From the IMG/VR virus record IMGVR_UViG_2802429241_000009: 39,485 bases of DNA; one strand, given 5' to 3'. Shown here piece after piece: positions 4,947 through 33,916 of the stretch. How positions within the stretch are numbered: position 1 is the first letter of the stretch; each line of letters begins with the position of its first letter. Source of the DNA: a virus (Duplodnaviria > Heunggongvirae > Uroviricota > Caudoviricetes). The position numbers and the translations under genes are program-made. The notes beneath the pieces were generated by a model that worked only from the letters and a program-made list of their open reading frames with translations, did not search any database and was not told the origin of the DNA.

Positions 4947-4965
4947 AACTTGTTACCTCGGTCTG

Positions 4966-5099: not shown

Positions 5100-5684
5100 T
5101 TATTGTTTGTTTTTTTCGTTCTGGTTGATGACAAATTCAATGTAACTTTCGATCTTTGCTTTCTCGGTTTCGGGTAACAATGCGTAGCGCGAGCGATCAT
5201 AGTTGATGGTCGCAGGGTCGTGCGGGTGAATCAGTAATTCATAGCCGTGACGCCCGAATGCGGATGCAACATTCTCCAGGGTGGAAATGGAAACGCTGAC
5301 CTCATTGTTTAACAGGCGGCTGATTGTCACCTGGGCGACGCCGGATGCGCGGTGTAGTTTTCCCTGCGTTGAAAGGTCGCGGCTTTCGCTCATCCAGCGT
5401 TCCAGGTTGTGAGCCGCCAGCTGACCAATGTCGCTAGGGCCGACAGGCTGAAAACCTTCCTGAGAAAGCGAGCGATCGATATCAAGCCAGTTACGGGGTT
5501 TATTGGCGGCAGCTTCAATTTTTCGCGCAACCTGGTCGCCGATAACCTTCTTGCCAAGAGCCCAGCGGTTTACCAGATTTGCCTGAGTTCCAAGTTTTTC
5601 AGCCATCCGCGTCTGAACACCATTGAATTCACGGTCGATCAAGTCGTTGAGATTTTGCCTGCGGACGTCCTGGATACTTTTCAT
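5100..5684 (-). CDS. Prophage repressor candidate (CI-like position, two HTH-like segments, no visible autocleavage module)
   Basis: 194 aa, divergent from the Cro-like gene; followed by an intrinsic terminator; no Ala-Gly/Cys-Gly plus Ser-Lys peptidase module recognised by eye. Confidence 0.65.
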   Translation of the reverse strand: MKSIQDVRRQNLNDLIDREFNGVQTRMAEKLGTQANLVNRWALGKKVIGDQVARKIEAAANKPRNWLDIDRSLSQEGFQPVGPSDIGQLAAHNLERWMSESRDLSTQGKLHRASGVAQVTISRLLNNEVSVSISTLENVASAFGRHGYELLIHPHDPATINYDRSRYALLPETEKAKIESYIEFVINQNEKNKQ

Positions 5685-5784: not shown

Positions 5785-5813
5785 TTGTTACCTTATGGGT
5801 GAATATTTATTAT
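5785..5813 (+). promoter_or_regulatory. PR-like sigma70 promoter candidate for the Cro-like gene
   Basis: -35 TTGTTA (5785..5790), 17-bp spacer, -10 TATTAT (5808..5813); operator variant overlaps the -35. Confidence 0.5.
5788..5802. promoter_or_regulatory. Operator-like variant TTACC-N5-GGTGA (immunity region site 3), overlapping the PR-like -35
   Basis: One mismatch in the right half; overlaps TTGTTA -35 and spacer. Confidence 0.45.
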
Positions 5814-5838
5814 CTGAAATAAATATCAGGCAATAGCT

Positions 5839-6069
5839 ATGAGCGATAACGGACATTTCGATTTCAAAAAGCACTGGCTTGCACTTACTCCGGATGAGCG
5901 TGAAGCCTTCGCACAGGAAGCCGGAACGACGAGTCACTATATCCAGACTCACTTAACAGGTAAGCGCAAAATGCCAGGTAAGGTATTGATGAATGGGCTT
6001 TTTAAAGCCTGTAAAACAAGACAATGGCTGCGCTCAAAAGCAGAACTGGCATACTTCTTCTACTCATGA
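5839..6069 (+). CDS. Cro-like small HTH regulator
   Basis: 76 aa, divergent from the repressor across the operator cluster; LALTPDEREAFAQEAGTTSHYIQTHLTGKRKMP HTH-like segment. Confidence 0.65.
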   Translation: MSDNGHFDFKKHWLALTPDEREAFAQEAGTTSHYIQTHLTGKRKMPGKVLMNGLFKACKTRQWLRSKAELAYFFYS

Positions 6070-13811: not shown

Positions 13812-13888
13812 TGGCGTGGCATGCAGGATTCGAACCTGCGACCAACCGCTTAGAAGGCGGTTGCTCTGTCCGACTGAGCTAATGCCAC
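13812..13888 (-). tRNA. tRNA-Arg (anticodon UCU), phage-borne
   Basis: 77 nt with full cloverleaf: 7-bp acceptor GTGGCAT/ATGCCAC, D-stem GCTC/GAGC, anticodon stem ACCGC/GCGGT with loop CTTCTAA, T-arm GCAGG-TTCGAAT-CCTGC, encoded CCA; close to E. coli argU as recalled. Confidence 0.85.
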
Positions 13889-31051: not shown

Positions 31052-31074
31052 AAAAAAAGCCCGCAGCGCTGGCT
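31052..31074 (-). terminator. Intrinsic terminator at the 3' end of the 179-aa membrane protein gene
   Basis: Minus-strand imperfect hairpin overlapping the stop codon followed by TTTTTTTG. Confidence 0.5.
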
Positions 31075-31613
31075 TACCAAAACTTGTACCACGGGGATTT
31101 ATCCTTCAATGGGCAATCCTTCCATCGTGTGGCCAACCATTCATATTCTTTAAAATATGTGTTTATGTTTTCTTTTTCTCTAATGGCTTGTATAAGAGGT
31201 AGCGCAATCTGATAGTTATTTACAACGGAGCTGTAAAATACTTCCTTAATCATGGTCTCATCATAAGTTTTCCGCTTCACGCTCACAGCCATGCGTTCGT
31301 AGAAACCTAGACAGTAAATTATTTCTCTCTTCTCTGTCTTTTCTTCATCCGTAAGATCAGCCTGCCCATTGCTTGGATACATATAAGAGCGGAATGATTT
31401 GTTCGATTCGTGAATGCGGCGCATAGTAGATAGGCCTTTCTTATAATCTACATCAAACCTGCTTTCACCAAGGAATACTGAAGTGTGTACTTTTCTCGCT
31501 GTATTTACATTATAAATAATAGTAGCGATAGCTATGAACAAGCCAAGCGAAACCGCGACTGCACTTACGATTTGAGCCACAGCCATGGCAAATTGCATTT
31601 CTTCACTTAACAC
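31074..31613 (-). CDS. Membrane-anchored hypothetical protein (179 aa), AT-rich gene; candidate superinfection-exclusion or defence protein
   Basis: GTG start after GGAGA; N-terminal TM (AMAVAQIVSAVAVSLGLFIAIATIIY); visibly lower GC than neighbours; hairpin/U-run structures at both ends. Confidence 0.55.
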   Translation of the reverse strand: MLSEEMQFAMAVAQIVSAVAVSLGLFIAIATIIYNVNTARKVHTSVFLGESRFDVDYKKGLSTMRRIHESNKSFRSYMYPSNGQADLTDEEKTEKREIIYCLGFYERMAVSVKRKTYDETMIKEVFYSSVVNNYQIALPLIQAIREKENINTYFKEYEWLATRWKDCPLKDKSPWYKFW

Positions 31614-31653: not shown

Positions 31654-31822
31654 TCATTAAACTATCCGAATGTTAAACGCCTTCGTACTCGTCAAATTTT
31701 CTCATGTGGGCTCCTCCTGTATCGGTGCATAATCGCTATGGATCACCCGTGAGGTAATAGTAAGCTATTCACCTGCAATCTGTACAGAATTATTTAAAGG
31801 CACATCCCTGTGCCGCCGCTCG

Positions 31823-32509
31823 TCAGAAGAACCCTGCCTTGTCGTTGATGTACTCCGCGTGCGTCTGGATATCACGCAGGCATTTGCTCACACCGACGAT
31901 GTAGCAGAACATGGTGGTCAACTCCGCCGCCGCGCCCGATACGTCGTGCCCGTCTTCCTGTAACTGGTTCAGCAGATTCATCAGCAGTGAGTTCTCCGTC
32001 AGGCCGAGAACACCAGACGGCGAGTGAATCAGGCTGCGGTAGCCTGGCTTCAGCGGGGCGCTGTAGGTTTTGTTCTCTATCTTCATCGCCTGCATCACTG
32101 CTGACGCCGTGGCGTTGGCTACCTGGTCGGCAACCATCTTTATGCGTTCTTCCTGCGGGAGCGAGTTTTTAATGTAACTTCCGGTGCGGCGGATCTGAGG
32201 AAGAACCTCACCTGTAACCCATTTACGAAAGCGGTAGGGGATAGTGCCTGGTGTCACCGCATCGCGGCAGCGGAGGATCAGTGTGTAGAGGCCTGACTCG
32301 CTGATAATATTGGTTTCGCCTTGACGACCTAAGTTAAATTTAGCCCTTTCATCATCATCAAGAGATTTGATTGACATGGTGGGGTTTGTCAGTTGAAGAG
32401 CTTTAATAACGTCTTTGGCAACAAACCAAGGATTTCCATCAATAACAATGGCTCGAATGGTTGCTTCTGATTCAAAATGAAAAACAGATGGGGTTACGTT
32501 AGCAGTCAT
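31823..32509 (-). CDS. BRO-N domain antirepressor-like protein
   Basis: N-terminal SVFHFESEATIRAIVIDGNPWFVAKDVIKALQL resembles the BRO-N signature; AGGTG SD before the ATG; long structured leader upstream. Confidence 0.7.
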   Translation of the reverse strand: MTANVTPSVFHFESEATIRAIVIDGNPWFVAKDVIKALQLTNPTMSIKSLDDDERAKFNLGRQGETNIISESGLYTLILRCRDAVTPGTIPYRFRKWVTGEVLPQIRRTGSYIKNSLPQEERIKMVADQVANATASAVMQAMKIENKTYSAPLKPGYRSLIHSPSGVLGLTENSLLMNLLNQLQEDGHDVSGAAAELTTMFCYIVGVSKCLRDIQTHAEYINDKAGFF

Positions 32510-32667
32510 GGCAATCACCTTTTAGTATGGTTAATCACCACCTGAGGTGCAAATCTCGTTGGTGGTGAGACGTACAGGGTTTGCACTACCGGCTAAAAGG
32601 ACCCGGCGCACCTTTCGGTGCCCCTGCACGTCCCACCATAATTCTGGCATGACTGTGCTATACGCAT

Positions 32668-32690
32668 AAAAAAACCACGTCTGGCGTGGT
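32668..32690 (-). terminator. Intrinsic terminator inside the antirepressor upstream region (attenuator or 3' end of a short RNA)
   Basis: Minus-strand ACCACG-CCAGA-CGTGGT followed by TTTTTTTAT. Confidence 0.6.
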
Positions 32691-32750
32691 ATGCGCCTTT
32701 TAGTAATCCGGGGTGCAAATCCCGGCACTGGATTTTGCCAGTGCTCGATT

Positions 32751-32779
32751 ACTATGGCACAAGAGGAGTGCGATGTAAA
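32751..32779 (-). promoter_or_regulatory. Candidate leftward promoter of a short structured RNA / antirepressor leader
   Basis: Minus-strand -35 TTTACA (plus 32774..32779), 17-bp spacer, -10 CATAGT (plus 32751..32756); predicted start near 32744. Confidence 0.3.
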
Positions 32780-32780
32780 T

Positions 32781-32795
32781 TTACCGCAAAGGTAA
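32781..32795. promoter_or_regulatory. Operator-like palindrome TTACC-N5-GGTAA adjacent to a candidate leftward promoter of the antirepressor leader
   Basis: Exact; abuts the candidate -35 (TTTACA on the minus strand). Confidence 0.5.
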
Positions 32796-32873
32796 TGATA
32801 AACGCTGATAAATATAAAAATCAACCGTATTTGGTTGATTGCGTTTAACGCTTGATCACCTGAAAGCAAGATA

Positions 32874-32888
32874 TTACCTTTAAGGTAA
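32874..32888. promoter_or_regulatory. Operator-like palindrome TTACC-N5-GGTAA just upstream of the zinc-ribbon protein gene
   Basis: Exact; overlaps the alternative ATG at 32888. Confidence 0.5.
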
Positions 32889-32908
32889 TGTTATTGTGGG
32901 GAAAAGCA

Positions 32909-33637
32909 ATGGAAGTTTTCTGGATAGTTGTTGGTGTGGTTGCGGTGATTATTTACGTTATCAACCAGAACAAGACTAAGATCTCTGATCGTACGGTCGT
33001 TAATCATAACAAAACGATAAAGACCGAAGATGGGGAGATAACGATTAATCGTACACAGGTGATAGAACACACCTCTACTCAGTTTCAAAAAACTGGAGGT
33101 AATGCGCCTAATATTTCCGCACCTCCTGCTTATGATAGTGCGGTAATCCAGACATATTATAAACAGCAGGAGTTAGCAAAAGAGAGGCAACTGATTCAGC
33201 CAAAGCCGTTTACAGCTGAGCTTCCACCTGGAGTGTCAACGCGTCCGGCATATCATGGAAGATTCCCTGGTGATGACATATCGTCTCAGTCATCTAAAAA
33301 AGCACCTCAGGCAGTATCAGAGCCAGCAAGAATACCTTCTGTATCGCCGCCAAAAGAAGAATCAGCTAACAGAGTTTCAAGTGGTAGCAAGCAGTGCTTG
33401 CGATGCAGAATAAACCTTCCATATGAAAAATTCAGGAAATCGTCAAAAAATCCAGATGGATTGACTAAGTGGTGTGCAAGGTGTCTCGATGGCCCAAAGA
33501 ATACACGCCATATGAAGTGGTGCCCAATTTGTAATGTCCGCAGAAAACGAACCAGTTTTTACCCTAATAATCAAAATGCGGATGGCTTAATGGCATGGTG
33601 CAAAACGTGCTGGGACGAGCACAAAGCGAAACGATAG
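32909..33637 (+). CDS. Membrane-anchored protein with a tandem C-terminal zinc-ribbon-like repeat
   Basis: N-terminal TM (VFWIVVGVVAVIIYVI); Ser/Pro-rich linker; two repeats of C-x2-C-x(17-20)-DGL-x3-WC-x2-C; ATG at 32888 is an alternative start. Confidence 0.55.
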   Translation: MEVFWIVVGVVAVIIYVINQNKTKISDRTVVNHNKTIKTEDGEITINRTQVIEHTSTQFQKTGGNAPNISAPPAYDSAVIQTYYKQQELAKERQLIQPKPFTAELPPGVSTRPAYHGRFPGDDISSQSSKKAPQAVSEPARIPSVSPPKEESANRVSSGSKQCLRCRINLPYEKFRKSSKNPDGLTKWCARCLDGPKNTRHMKWCPICNVRRKRTSFYPNNQNADGLMAWCKTCWDEHKAKR

Positions 33638-33660
33638 GCCGCTCTTGCGGCCTTTTCTTT
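33637..33660 (+). terminator. Intrinsic terminator after the zinc-ribbon protein gene, between convergent genes
   Basis: GGCCGC-TCTT-GCGGCC followed by TTTTCTTT. Confidence 0.65.
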
Positions 33661-33916
33661 ATGTGGTTTGTTTTCGTAGTTGTTCGGCACAATAGTCGAG
33701 ATGTGTTTGCAGATCCTGCATAGACATCTGTGAGCTGGTGACGTAGTTAATCAGTGCAGTCAGTTCGGCAAGTGGGCCATCGACATTAAATCCATCCTTA
33801 TCGAGATCCCGGAGTAATTTCATCAAGTGCGATCCCTCCACCAGTGATCTGACGCCTCCCGGCGTGTGAATCCTTTCGGTAAATCCGTCTTCCAGTGGAT
33901 AGTGATACCGCTGCAT
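33659..33916 (-). CDS. Small antirepressor-domain protein (85 aa), putatively LexA-controlled
   Basis: Homologous by eye to the C-terminal about 80 aa of the BRO-N protein at 31823..32509 (shared IH.P.GV, LM.LL, DG..V.G..AELT, D.QTH..Y); GGAGAAG SD; LexA-box-like site 21 nt upstream. Confidence 0.55.
   Translation of the reverse strand: MQRYHYPLEDGFTERIHTPGGVRSLVEGSHLMKLLRDLDKDGFNVDGPLAELTALINYVTSSQMSMQDLQTHLDYCAEQLRKQTT

Follow-up and report, generated by a model that had tools for sequence, protein, structure and literature searches.

The question raised by this locus is how a prophage restrains its own antirepressor. In the viral sequence IMGVR_UViG_2802429241_000009 (Caudoviricetes), a DNA stretch of 39,485 nucleotides (nt) that was analysed over its full length and is called the window below, the gene ant encodes a protein matching the Pfam Bro-N domain (E = 1.5e-19) and PHROG 130, 'anti-repressor Ant' (E = 1.6e-56). 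An initial annotation, made from the sequence alone, had described a promoter, three hairpins, an intrinsic terminator and a repeated loop motif in the leader of this gene, and had proposed attenuation or small-RNA control of its expression. The leader is a previously described RNA immunity module, in which a short IsrK RNA is followed by a C4 antisense RNA of the P1/P4 type. At the window locus, this identification is carried by the membership of both RNAs in their families, the complementarity of short sequence boxes, the overlap of one of these boxes with the ant Shine-Dalgarno sequence and the concerted variation of the boxes at three sites. The features listed in the initial annotation are real; together they constitute a known system, and nothing in them changes current understanding of it. 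Element coordinates refer to the minus strand of the window unless stated otherwise.

Both RNAs are recovered by Rfam at full length on the minus strand: isrK (RF01394) at 32744..32668, with 67.4 bits (gathering score 50, E = 1.8e-12, model positions 1-77 of 77), and C4 antisense RNA (RF01695) at 32643..32558, with 77.8 bits (gathering score 45, E = 1e-13, model positions 1-87 of 87). Over the whole window only three matches reach the gathering thresholds, these two and a tRNA. Since the isrK model matches 32744-32668 end to end, the transcript of about 77 nt drawn up in the initial annotation from two adjacent hairpins and a terminator with a U7 tract to 32668, all of which are found, is IsrK. 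Its idea of small-RNA control also stands; the regulator itself, C4, went unrecognised and the three hairpins were cast as the actors. The 86-nt C4 fold (32643-32558) had been treated as spacer, and the box CUAAAAGG, present at 32703-32696 and 32525-32518 and belonging to the set that touches the ribosome site, had been missed.

Boxes are named here by the convention of the P1 RefSeq record, in which a is the 5' box and b the 3' box near the ribosome site (Table 1). The C4 RNA of the window carries one sequence complementary to each, with matches of 7 nt for a' and 8 nt for b', each at both target sites. One pair of targets, a1 and b1, lies in IsrK; the other, a2 and b2, lies downstream of C4 with a gap of 21 nt between the boxes, and b2 overlaps the Shine-Dalgarno sequence of ant. 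The 10-mer GGTGCAAATC, reported in the initial annotation as exactly repeated at 32546 and 32712, is indeed repeated there and holds the two a boxes, and the near-complement GUGCAAAC noted at 32586-32579 is a' of C4. The repeat alone is not significant, with four matches at up to one mismatch against 3.5 expected; its meaning comes from covariation in relatives. In these, b2 is likewise fused to GAGG, GGAGG or AGG upstream of the ATG, and the loop of C4 hairpin 2 pairs with the Shine-Dalgarno sequence in every locus compared.

Relatives were collected by blastn with a 301-nt region, which gave 187 phage records, from which 20 diverse loci were fetched: the ε15-like phages phiV10, TL-2011b, ZX5 and Tyrion, Stx and other lambdoid phages, APSE-1, APSE-7 and phiKO2. 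Gifsy-1, P1 and P4 were added as reference phages. In each of the 20 fetched loci, four of which had been retrieved by C4 similarity alone, Rfam recovers isrK and, after it, C4, both on the strand that encodes an ant-like gene further downstream. The spacer between the two RNAs measures 23-26 nt in 19 of them and 35 nt in 569R5. Covariation was analysed over 22 loci from ε15-like, Stx, APSE and N15-like phages and Gifsy-1.

These 22 loci hold 11 types of a' heptamer and 16 types of b' loop, in 19 combinations. The cognate match of a1 with a' is complete (7/7) in 21 loci, and that of a2 with a' in all 22. Complementary runs average 7.0 nt for cognate a boxes, against about 3.9 nt for non-cognate ones; for the b boxes the cognate and non-cognate values are 8.7 and 5.0 nt at b1 and 9.6 and 6.1 nt at b2. 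For each of the four box-target pairings, none of 10,000 permutations reached the observed sum. On a MAFFT alignment, both partners have changed in six of the seven a1:a' pairs, and pairing is kept in 96% of cells. These sequence comparisons argue strongly that both target regions are bound by C4 and that specificity resides in the boxes. Duplex energies, calculated with RNAduplex for the C4 core against the IsrK and leader sequences, all against all (cognate mean -33 kcal/mol, non-cognate mean -22 kcal/mol), were dropped as a measure in favour of the run lengths at box level, because they are confounded by the CCGG stems, which are conserved, and by the 21 nt that separate a2 from b2.

The three helices of C4 are 100% paired across the 22 loci, with 15 compensatory pairs (nine, five and one changed on both sides). 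The CCACC at the 3' end is nearly invariant, both CC pairs being invariant and the A present in at least 90% of loci. In register with the C4 of P1 (12344-12420 of that genome), the mature RNA is predicted to span 32637-32561, or 77 nt; a molecule of this length folds with -48.5 kcal/mol (z = -6.0). The C4 precursor is reportedly a substrate of RNase P, a result attributed to Hartmann in 1995.

Table 1. Features of the ant leader and related elements in the window.
Feature	Coordinates	Strand	Remarks
Operator-like palindrome	32780..32796		Minus-strand sequence ATTACCTTTGCGGTAAA; abuts the -35 hexamer of the isrK promoter
Candidate sigma-70-type promoter	32751..32779	minus	-35 TTTACA 32779-32774; 17-nt spacer; TG-extended -10 CATAGT 32756-32751
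IsrK-family RNA	32668..32744	minus	77 nt; hairpin 1, hairpin 2, intrinsic terminator
IsrK hairpin 1	32744-32725	minus	Fold
IsrK hairpin 2	32724-32709	minus	Fold
a1 box, UUUGCAC	32713..32719	minus	Loop of IsrK hairpin 2; complementary to a'
b1 box, CUAAAAGG	32696..32703	minus	In IsrK, 5 nt before the terminator stem; complementary to b'
IsrK intrinsic terminator	Stem 32690-32674, U7 to 32668	minus	Terminator scan
Outer helix enclosing terminator and U-tract	32662..32696	minus	32696-32691 with 32667-32662; minimum-energy fold
C4 antisense RNA	32558..32643	minus	86 nt; 17-bp basal stem and two inner hairpins
b', CCUUUUAG	32593..32600	minus	In the C4 hairpin 2 loop; partner of b1 and b2
a', GUGCAAA	32580..32586	minus	Single-stranded stretch separating C4 hairpin 2 from the 3' basal strand; partner of a1 and a2
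Alternative hairpin	32535..32568	minus	C4 3' strand UCACCACC (32568-32561) with GGUGGUGA (32542-32535); a2 in loop
a2 box, UUUGCAC	32547..32553	minus	8 nt past the predicted C4 3' end
b2 box, CUAAAAGG	32525-32518	minus	Overlaps the ant Shine-Dalgarno sequence AAGGUGA (32521-32515)
ant (antirepressor gene)	31823..32509	minus	ATG 32509; 228 codons; N-terminal BRO-N domain
Palindrome sites (17 nt) in the window	4965, 5027, 5739, 8020, 8082, 11394, 11412, 14210, 23484, 31742, 32780, 32873, 33992, 36682, 38385		

The b box of the window is that of the ε15-like phages phiV10, TL-2011b and ZX5, while its a box is that of the lambdoid phages PhiR12_2 and Stx2_14040 and has changed concertedly at all three sites. 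This combination of an ε15-like b box with a lambdoid-type a box means that the module probably represents a distinct RNA-immunity specificity. The RNA module is only 81-84% identical to those of the ε15-like relatives; the best-covered phage matches to a 1.4-kb query spanning ant are 90-94% identical.

Among the closest known systems is the immI operon (c4-icd-ant) of P1 and P7. The C4 of P1 scores 68.8 bits, compared with 77.8 in the window, and the P1 RefSeq record annotates a1, b1, C4, a2 and b2 in that order, with b2 located 10 nt before the icd ATG and with a2 and b2 as the C4 target sites that repress translation of icd and ant. The order of promoter, a1, b1, terminator-like hairpin, C4, a2 and b2 with the ribosome-binding site is common to P1 and the window, as are the placement of a1 in the loop of the second 5' hairpin, the relative position of a2 and the proximity of b2 to a start codon. 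The likeness to P1 c4 drawn in the initial annotation is thus one of homology and not mere analogy. Where the P1 record places a C1 operator (Oc4) that controls the c4 promoters, the window has an operator-like palindrome. There are also differences: unlike P1, the window lacks an icd open reading frame (ORF), no ORF being found between C4 and ant, and its b2 overlaps the Shine-Dalgarno sequence of ant itself. The 5' leader of P1 scores 35.1 bits as isrK, which is below threshold (67.4 in the window), its box sequences differ, and its Ant1 is not homologous to the Ant of the window (BLASTP E = 0.11). In some loci the Rfam family 'c4-a1b1' (RF03163) overlaps the 5' part of isrK.

The APSE phages of Hamiltonella have the same three parts as the window, isrK, C4 and a BRO-N gene, likewise without icd (Rouïl et al. 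2020, PMC7313666). In their public records isrK, C4, a' and b' are already marked, with a' denoting the loop and b' the single strand, opposite to the P1 usage. Nucleotide identity with the window is about 73%, the BRO-N proteins match with E = 3e-4, and the APSE boxes read GUCUCAA and CCUUGUUAG. In phiKO2, isrK (66.8 bits) and C4 (71.8 bits) lie upstream of ant genes and the boxes co-vary likewise; N15 and phiKO2 have a small processed RNA, icd and antA/antB and, unlike the window, belong to a linear plasmid-prophage. The kinship of IsrK-C4 with P4 seqA/CI and with P1, P7 and N15 has already been stated (Barquist et al. 2013, PMC3632133), and this homology is stated again in the discussion of the Gifsy-1 study (Hershko-Shalev et al. 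2016, PMC4825925).

The sar RNA of P22, with which the initial annotation had also compared the leader, shares the goal of limiting antirepressor synthesis by RNA in an immI region beside the tailspike gene. Whereas sar is read from the strand opposite to ant and spans the start of that gene, C4 is transcribed from the same strand as its target. As no match to sar (Rfam RF00262) at the gathering threshold is found anywhere in the window and C4 comes from the strand of its target, this likeness is rejected. The phage TL-2011b (fetched locus L002) has an Rfam sar match at 5807-5874, with 44.8 bits at a threshold of 43, about 3 kb from its IsrK/C4, and so holds both types of RNA.

The promoter described in the initial annotation (TTTACA/CATAGT) is present, with 9 of 12 matches in a consensus scan, and a transcript start at G32744 is predicted from position 1 of the Rfam isrK model and from the equivalent layout in Gifsy-1. 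The palindrome abutting its -35 hexamer belongs to a dispersed set: when up to two mismatches are allowed, 15 sites in the window match ATTACC-N5-GGTAAT, where 1.0 would be expected and no more than 4 were seen in any of 100 shuffles. Twelve of the sites have one mismatch or none; 11 of these lie between ORFs and one is just within the small-terminase ORF. At the isrK promoter, the half-sites are kept in position, with a varying spacer sequence, in phiV10, TL-2011b, ZX5 and Tyrion. The palindrome at this promoter, the sole pattern for which the promoter region was searched, suggests a repressor site.

The dispersed palindromes look like the operators of one repressor, as is the case for P1 C1. 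At 5100-5684 on the minus strand, flanked by the palindromes at 4965, 5027 and 5739, a gene encodes a 194-residue Cro/C1-type helix-turn-helix protein (Pfam HTH_3, E = 1.2e-9; PHROG 8), which is a candidate for the primary repressor and also for the target of Ant.

Taking these elements together, we consider it likely that the locus is an immI-type secondary immunity module of an ε15-like E. coli prophage in which C4 silences ant. One leftward promoter would drive IsrK, C4 and ant in that order, and the palindrome at its -35 hexamer hints that it is under the control of a phage repressor. Judging from the terminator and from Gifsy-1, most transcripts would end at 32668 and yield the 77-nt IsrK. 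Read-through RNA would carry the C4 fold, from which, judging from the homologous RNA of P1, a stable RNA of about 77 nt may be excised by RNase P and trimmed at its 3' end. C4 would then pair through b' with b2 and through a' with a2 on the ant leader, covering the Shine-Dalgarno sequence; since b2 overlaps this sequence, C4 would block translation of ant, an effect carried over from P1. The window lacks a coupling ORF, and C4 would therefore act directly on the Shine-Dalgarno sequence of ant, as in APSE. It would silence the ant of the resident prophage and that of an incoming phage with the same boxes.

The boxes a1 and b1, in IsrK and in the 5' leader, would also bind C4, as decoy or autoregulatory targets. 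A burst from the promoter or an excess of IsrK could titrate C4, upon which ant would be translated, or could feed back on termination; the decoy role is our own reading of the Gifsy-1 data. For C4 processing, the translational block and decoy action alike, experiments on homologues provide the basis on which they are proposed for the window. Tentatively, the module might be described as a three-RNA switch with a combinatorial address, in which the ratio of IsrK (the decoy) to C4 (the antisense RNA) would decide on Ant, the two boxes would reassort independently, the window would have a new specificity and the action would be directly on the ant Shine-Dalgarno sequence.

An alternative that we regard as possible, though doubtful, is that the module works as in P4, with C4 acting on the nascent a1/b1 (and a2/b2) to promote termination at the IsrK terminator or at Rho-dependent sites, and with the block of the ribosome-binding site being secondary. 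Both RNA families occur in P4, as the CI RNA (C4, 74.9 bits) and the seqA leader (isrK, 60.8 bits), which show two-box complementarity as in the window and act by antisense-dependent termination (PMC4825925, PMC3632133). The P4 module controls a replication operon rather than an antirepressor, by premature termination of transcription, and its isrK-C4 spacer is 107 nt long, compared with 24 nt in the window. In hairpin 1 of IsrK, six of seven pairs are compensatory over the 22 loci. The terminator can be enclosed, on read-through transcripts only, by an outer helix. Terminator and outer helix are only 53-59% paired on the MAFFT alignment, because this indel-rich region is misaligned; alignment-free folding finds both in 21 of 23 loci, and local folding recovers the outer helix with differing sequences, also in P1 and Gifsy-1.

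In the window, b1 ends 5 nt ahead of the terminator stem, and keeping a1 and b1 unpaired raises the computed probability of this stem from 0.56 to 0.97, as expected if C4 binding favours termination. This effect is not conserved, however: in 13 of 20 loci the probability is already at least 0.8 without blocking, and a clear effect is seen in the window and six others. The fusion of b2 to the Shine-Dalgarno sequence in relatives is a prediction of translational block that pure termination does not need. Termination of the P4 type and the translational block proposed here for C4 are not mutually exclusive.

Experimental data on a homologous module come from Gifsy-1, where isrK (79.3 bits) is followed by C4 (69 bits) and an antirepressor-like gene with the same spacing as in the window, and where short and read-through isoforms come from one promoter, as proposed here. 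The a box differs (ACGCCAA in Gifsy-1, GUGCAAA in the window), AnrP is unrelated to the Ant of the window (E = 4.4), and the Gifsy-1 module lies downstream of Q, whereas that of the window lies between DNA-injection genes and the tailspike gene. In Gifsy-1, short IsrK arises by termination and read-through gives an isrK-orf45-anrP transcript, from which an RNA of about 80 nt, STnc1160, is processed; IsrK supplied in trans increases anrP translation 139-fold (Hershko-Shalev et al. 2016, PMC4825925). The substitutions G28A and G31A in this IsrK abolish activation, and in native gels the RNA regains the single wild-type conformation when the changes are combined as G28A/C162U or G31A/C159U (PMC4825925). 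Numbered from the Rfam isrK start, G28 and G31 fall in a1 (AUUGGCGU, nt 25-32), while C159 and C162 fall in a' (ACGCCAA, nt 158-164) of the Rfam C4 match; as both mutated pairs map onto these boxes, the pairing verified in Gifsy-1 is a1:a'. The equivalent pairing in the window is complete (7/7).

It is very unlikely that the published Gifsy-1 scheme applies literally, that is, with the read-through mRNA shut by pairing to IsrK in cis, with IsrK in trans opening orf45, and ant following by coupling, and with no processed antisense RNA. The IsrK family match fits it, and so do the near-isoenergetic leader folds described below, which resemble the published structures A and B (PMC4825925). The AUG of orf45 (A107) corresponds to the conserved AUG of the C4 5' stem. 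The equivalent frame in the window begins at AUG 32639 and has only 17 codons; its stop lies within C4, 77 nt upstream of the ant ATG, which makes translational coupling impossible. Nor is the length of the frame conserved over the 23 loci: the window, P1, both APSE phages, Tyrion and PhiR12_2 have 14-17 codons, six others have 31-58, and in ten the frame is fused to that of the downstream gene; the AUGA overlap is found in Gifsy-1 only. In the Gifsy-1 study itself, orf45 is conserved in its nucleotides and not in its amino acids (PMC4825925).

A third alternative, corresponding to the attenuation option of the initial annotation, is a purely cis-acting attenuator or structured 5' untranslated region in which alternative folding sets ant expression and no RNA acts in trans. 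The leader is indeed structured: over its whole 245 nt it folds with z = -5.66, and none of 200 shuffles was as good. With this 245-nt input, IsrK and C4 fold separately (-103.6 kcal/mol), and with a 238-nt input a1b1 pairs in cis with a'b' (-98.7 kcal/mol). The minimum-energy fold (32507-32744) thus switches with the 3' end of the input, resembling the two conformers seen in native gels for Gifsy-1 (PMC4825925).

The 8-bp hairpin that the initial annotation placed before the ant Shine-Dalgarno sequence folds in isolation (-16.1 kcal/mol, z = -3.85) and is conserved across loci, with 96.6% of cells paired and three of eight pairs compensatory. However, the 3' strand of the C4 basal stem serves as the 5' arm of this hairpin, so that the two structures are mutually exclusive, and in the minimum-energy fold of the full leader the hairpin is missing and the C4 fold wins. 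On unprocessed transcripts, this alternative hairpin would present a2 in its loop. The proposal that the arms GGUGGUGA and UCACCACC mask the Shine-Dalgarno sequence is not supported: in relatives this sequence is mostly GAGG or GGAGG, which is unable to pair with them, and folding of the processed leader by itself is not significant (z = -0.70).

The promoter-proximal intrinsic terminator, together with the ability of the C4 3' strand to pair with either the C4 5' strand or GGUGGUGA, is what a cis attenuator would use; we nevertheless give this explanation very little credence, as it leaves unexplained why two short boxes co-vary at three sites between constant flanking stems and why the RNAs are homologous to the trans-acting RNAs of P1, P7, P4 and Gifsy-1. 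That IsrK is chiefly an Hfq-dependent small RNA acting on host mRNAs, its site upstream of ant being incidental, is highly improbable: the Rfam family is named 'isrK Hfq binding RNA', but IsrK precedes C4 and an ant-like gene in every locus compared, its variable loop changes in step with the a' box of the C4 at the same locus, and no host target emerged, though none was looked for.

Several points weigh against silencing of ant by C4 in the form proposed above. The promoter and terminator are consensus-level matches only. A coupling ORF of the icd or orf45 type is missing in the window, and the mechanisms published for P1 and Gifsy-1 are therefore not transferable step for step. The authors of the Gifsy-1 study credit activation to opening of the orf45 ribosome-binding site and not to titration of an antisense RNA, and constitutive STnc1160 left the toxicity of IsrK unrelieved (PMC4825925). 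Finally, in 18 E. coli genomes that contain the sequence at an identity of at least 99%, RefSeq annotates none of these RNAs.

The sequence of the module is 100% identical in at least 15 complete E. coli genomes and present in some version in 474 of 5,426, and RefSeq lists only the BRO-N gene at the E. coli copies. One genome with the identical sequence is that of E. coli FDAARGOS_1303 (NZ_CP070045). In 10 of 23 loci, the AUG in the C4 5' stem shares its reading frame with the gene downstream. In several phage records, protein-coding genes are annotated across C4 and at times also across IsrK. These are an 'ash family protein' in ZX5 (L004, 561-674), a 'transcriptional repressor' in phiKO2 (L013, 558-734), long genes for a 'regulatory protein' or 'antirepressor' in two further loci (L007, 157-990; L010, 157-995) and the 'cI gene product' of P4 (L023, 1169-1585). 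Coding sequences called across C4 are probably mis-annotated RNA genes.

Around the module, a PADLOC scan of Ant and three neighbouring proteins gave zero matches. Upstream of the isrK promoter, at 33659-33916 on the minus strand, an ORF of 85 residues is 40% identical to Ant residues 147-224 (E = 1e-19; phrog_450); it is a free-standing C-terminal domain of Ant and the counterpart of phiV10 p24 and ε15 gp19. Divergent from the isrK promoter, an ORF of 249 residues (32888-33637, plus strand) has a hydrophobic N-terminus and a Cys-rich C-terminus. It gives only a weak match to Stc1, below threshold, and a terminator-like site is present at 33636-33653. The ORF is absent from phiV10, and in TL-2011b it is represented by just a feature labelled 'similar to hypothetical protein'. 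It has the look of an inserted moron, with a perfect palindrome at its start (32873-32889). Just downstream of ant, a DUF4760 protein (31074-31613, minus strand, E = 8e-31) has the palindrome at 31742 in front of it and no PADLOC match. The tRNA of the window is a tRNA-Arg with anticodon UCU (13812-13888, minus strand), found by both Rfam and ARAGORN.

The main value of these results lies in annotation, an identical module being unannotated in complete E. coli genomes. Reading 'orf45' as C4 RNA is supported by the Gifsy-1 mutations, which lie on the a1:a' pairing, and the catalogue of boxes provides a set of natural compensatory variants. The identity of IsrK and C4 tells how an ε15-like prophage restrains its antirepressor, and predicts which co-resident or incoming phages would share RNA immunity with it. 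If the switch with two reassorting boxes is true, the specificity of the window could be partially cross-reactive with two otherwise unrelated groups of phages.

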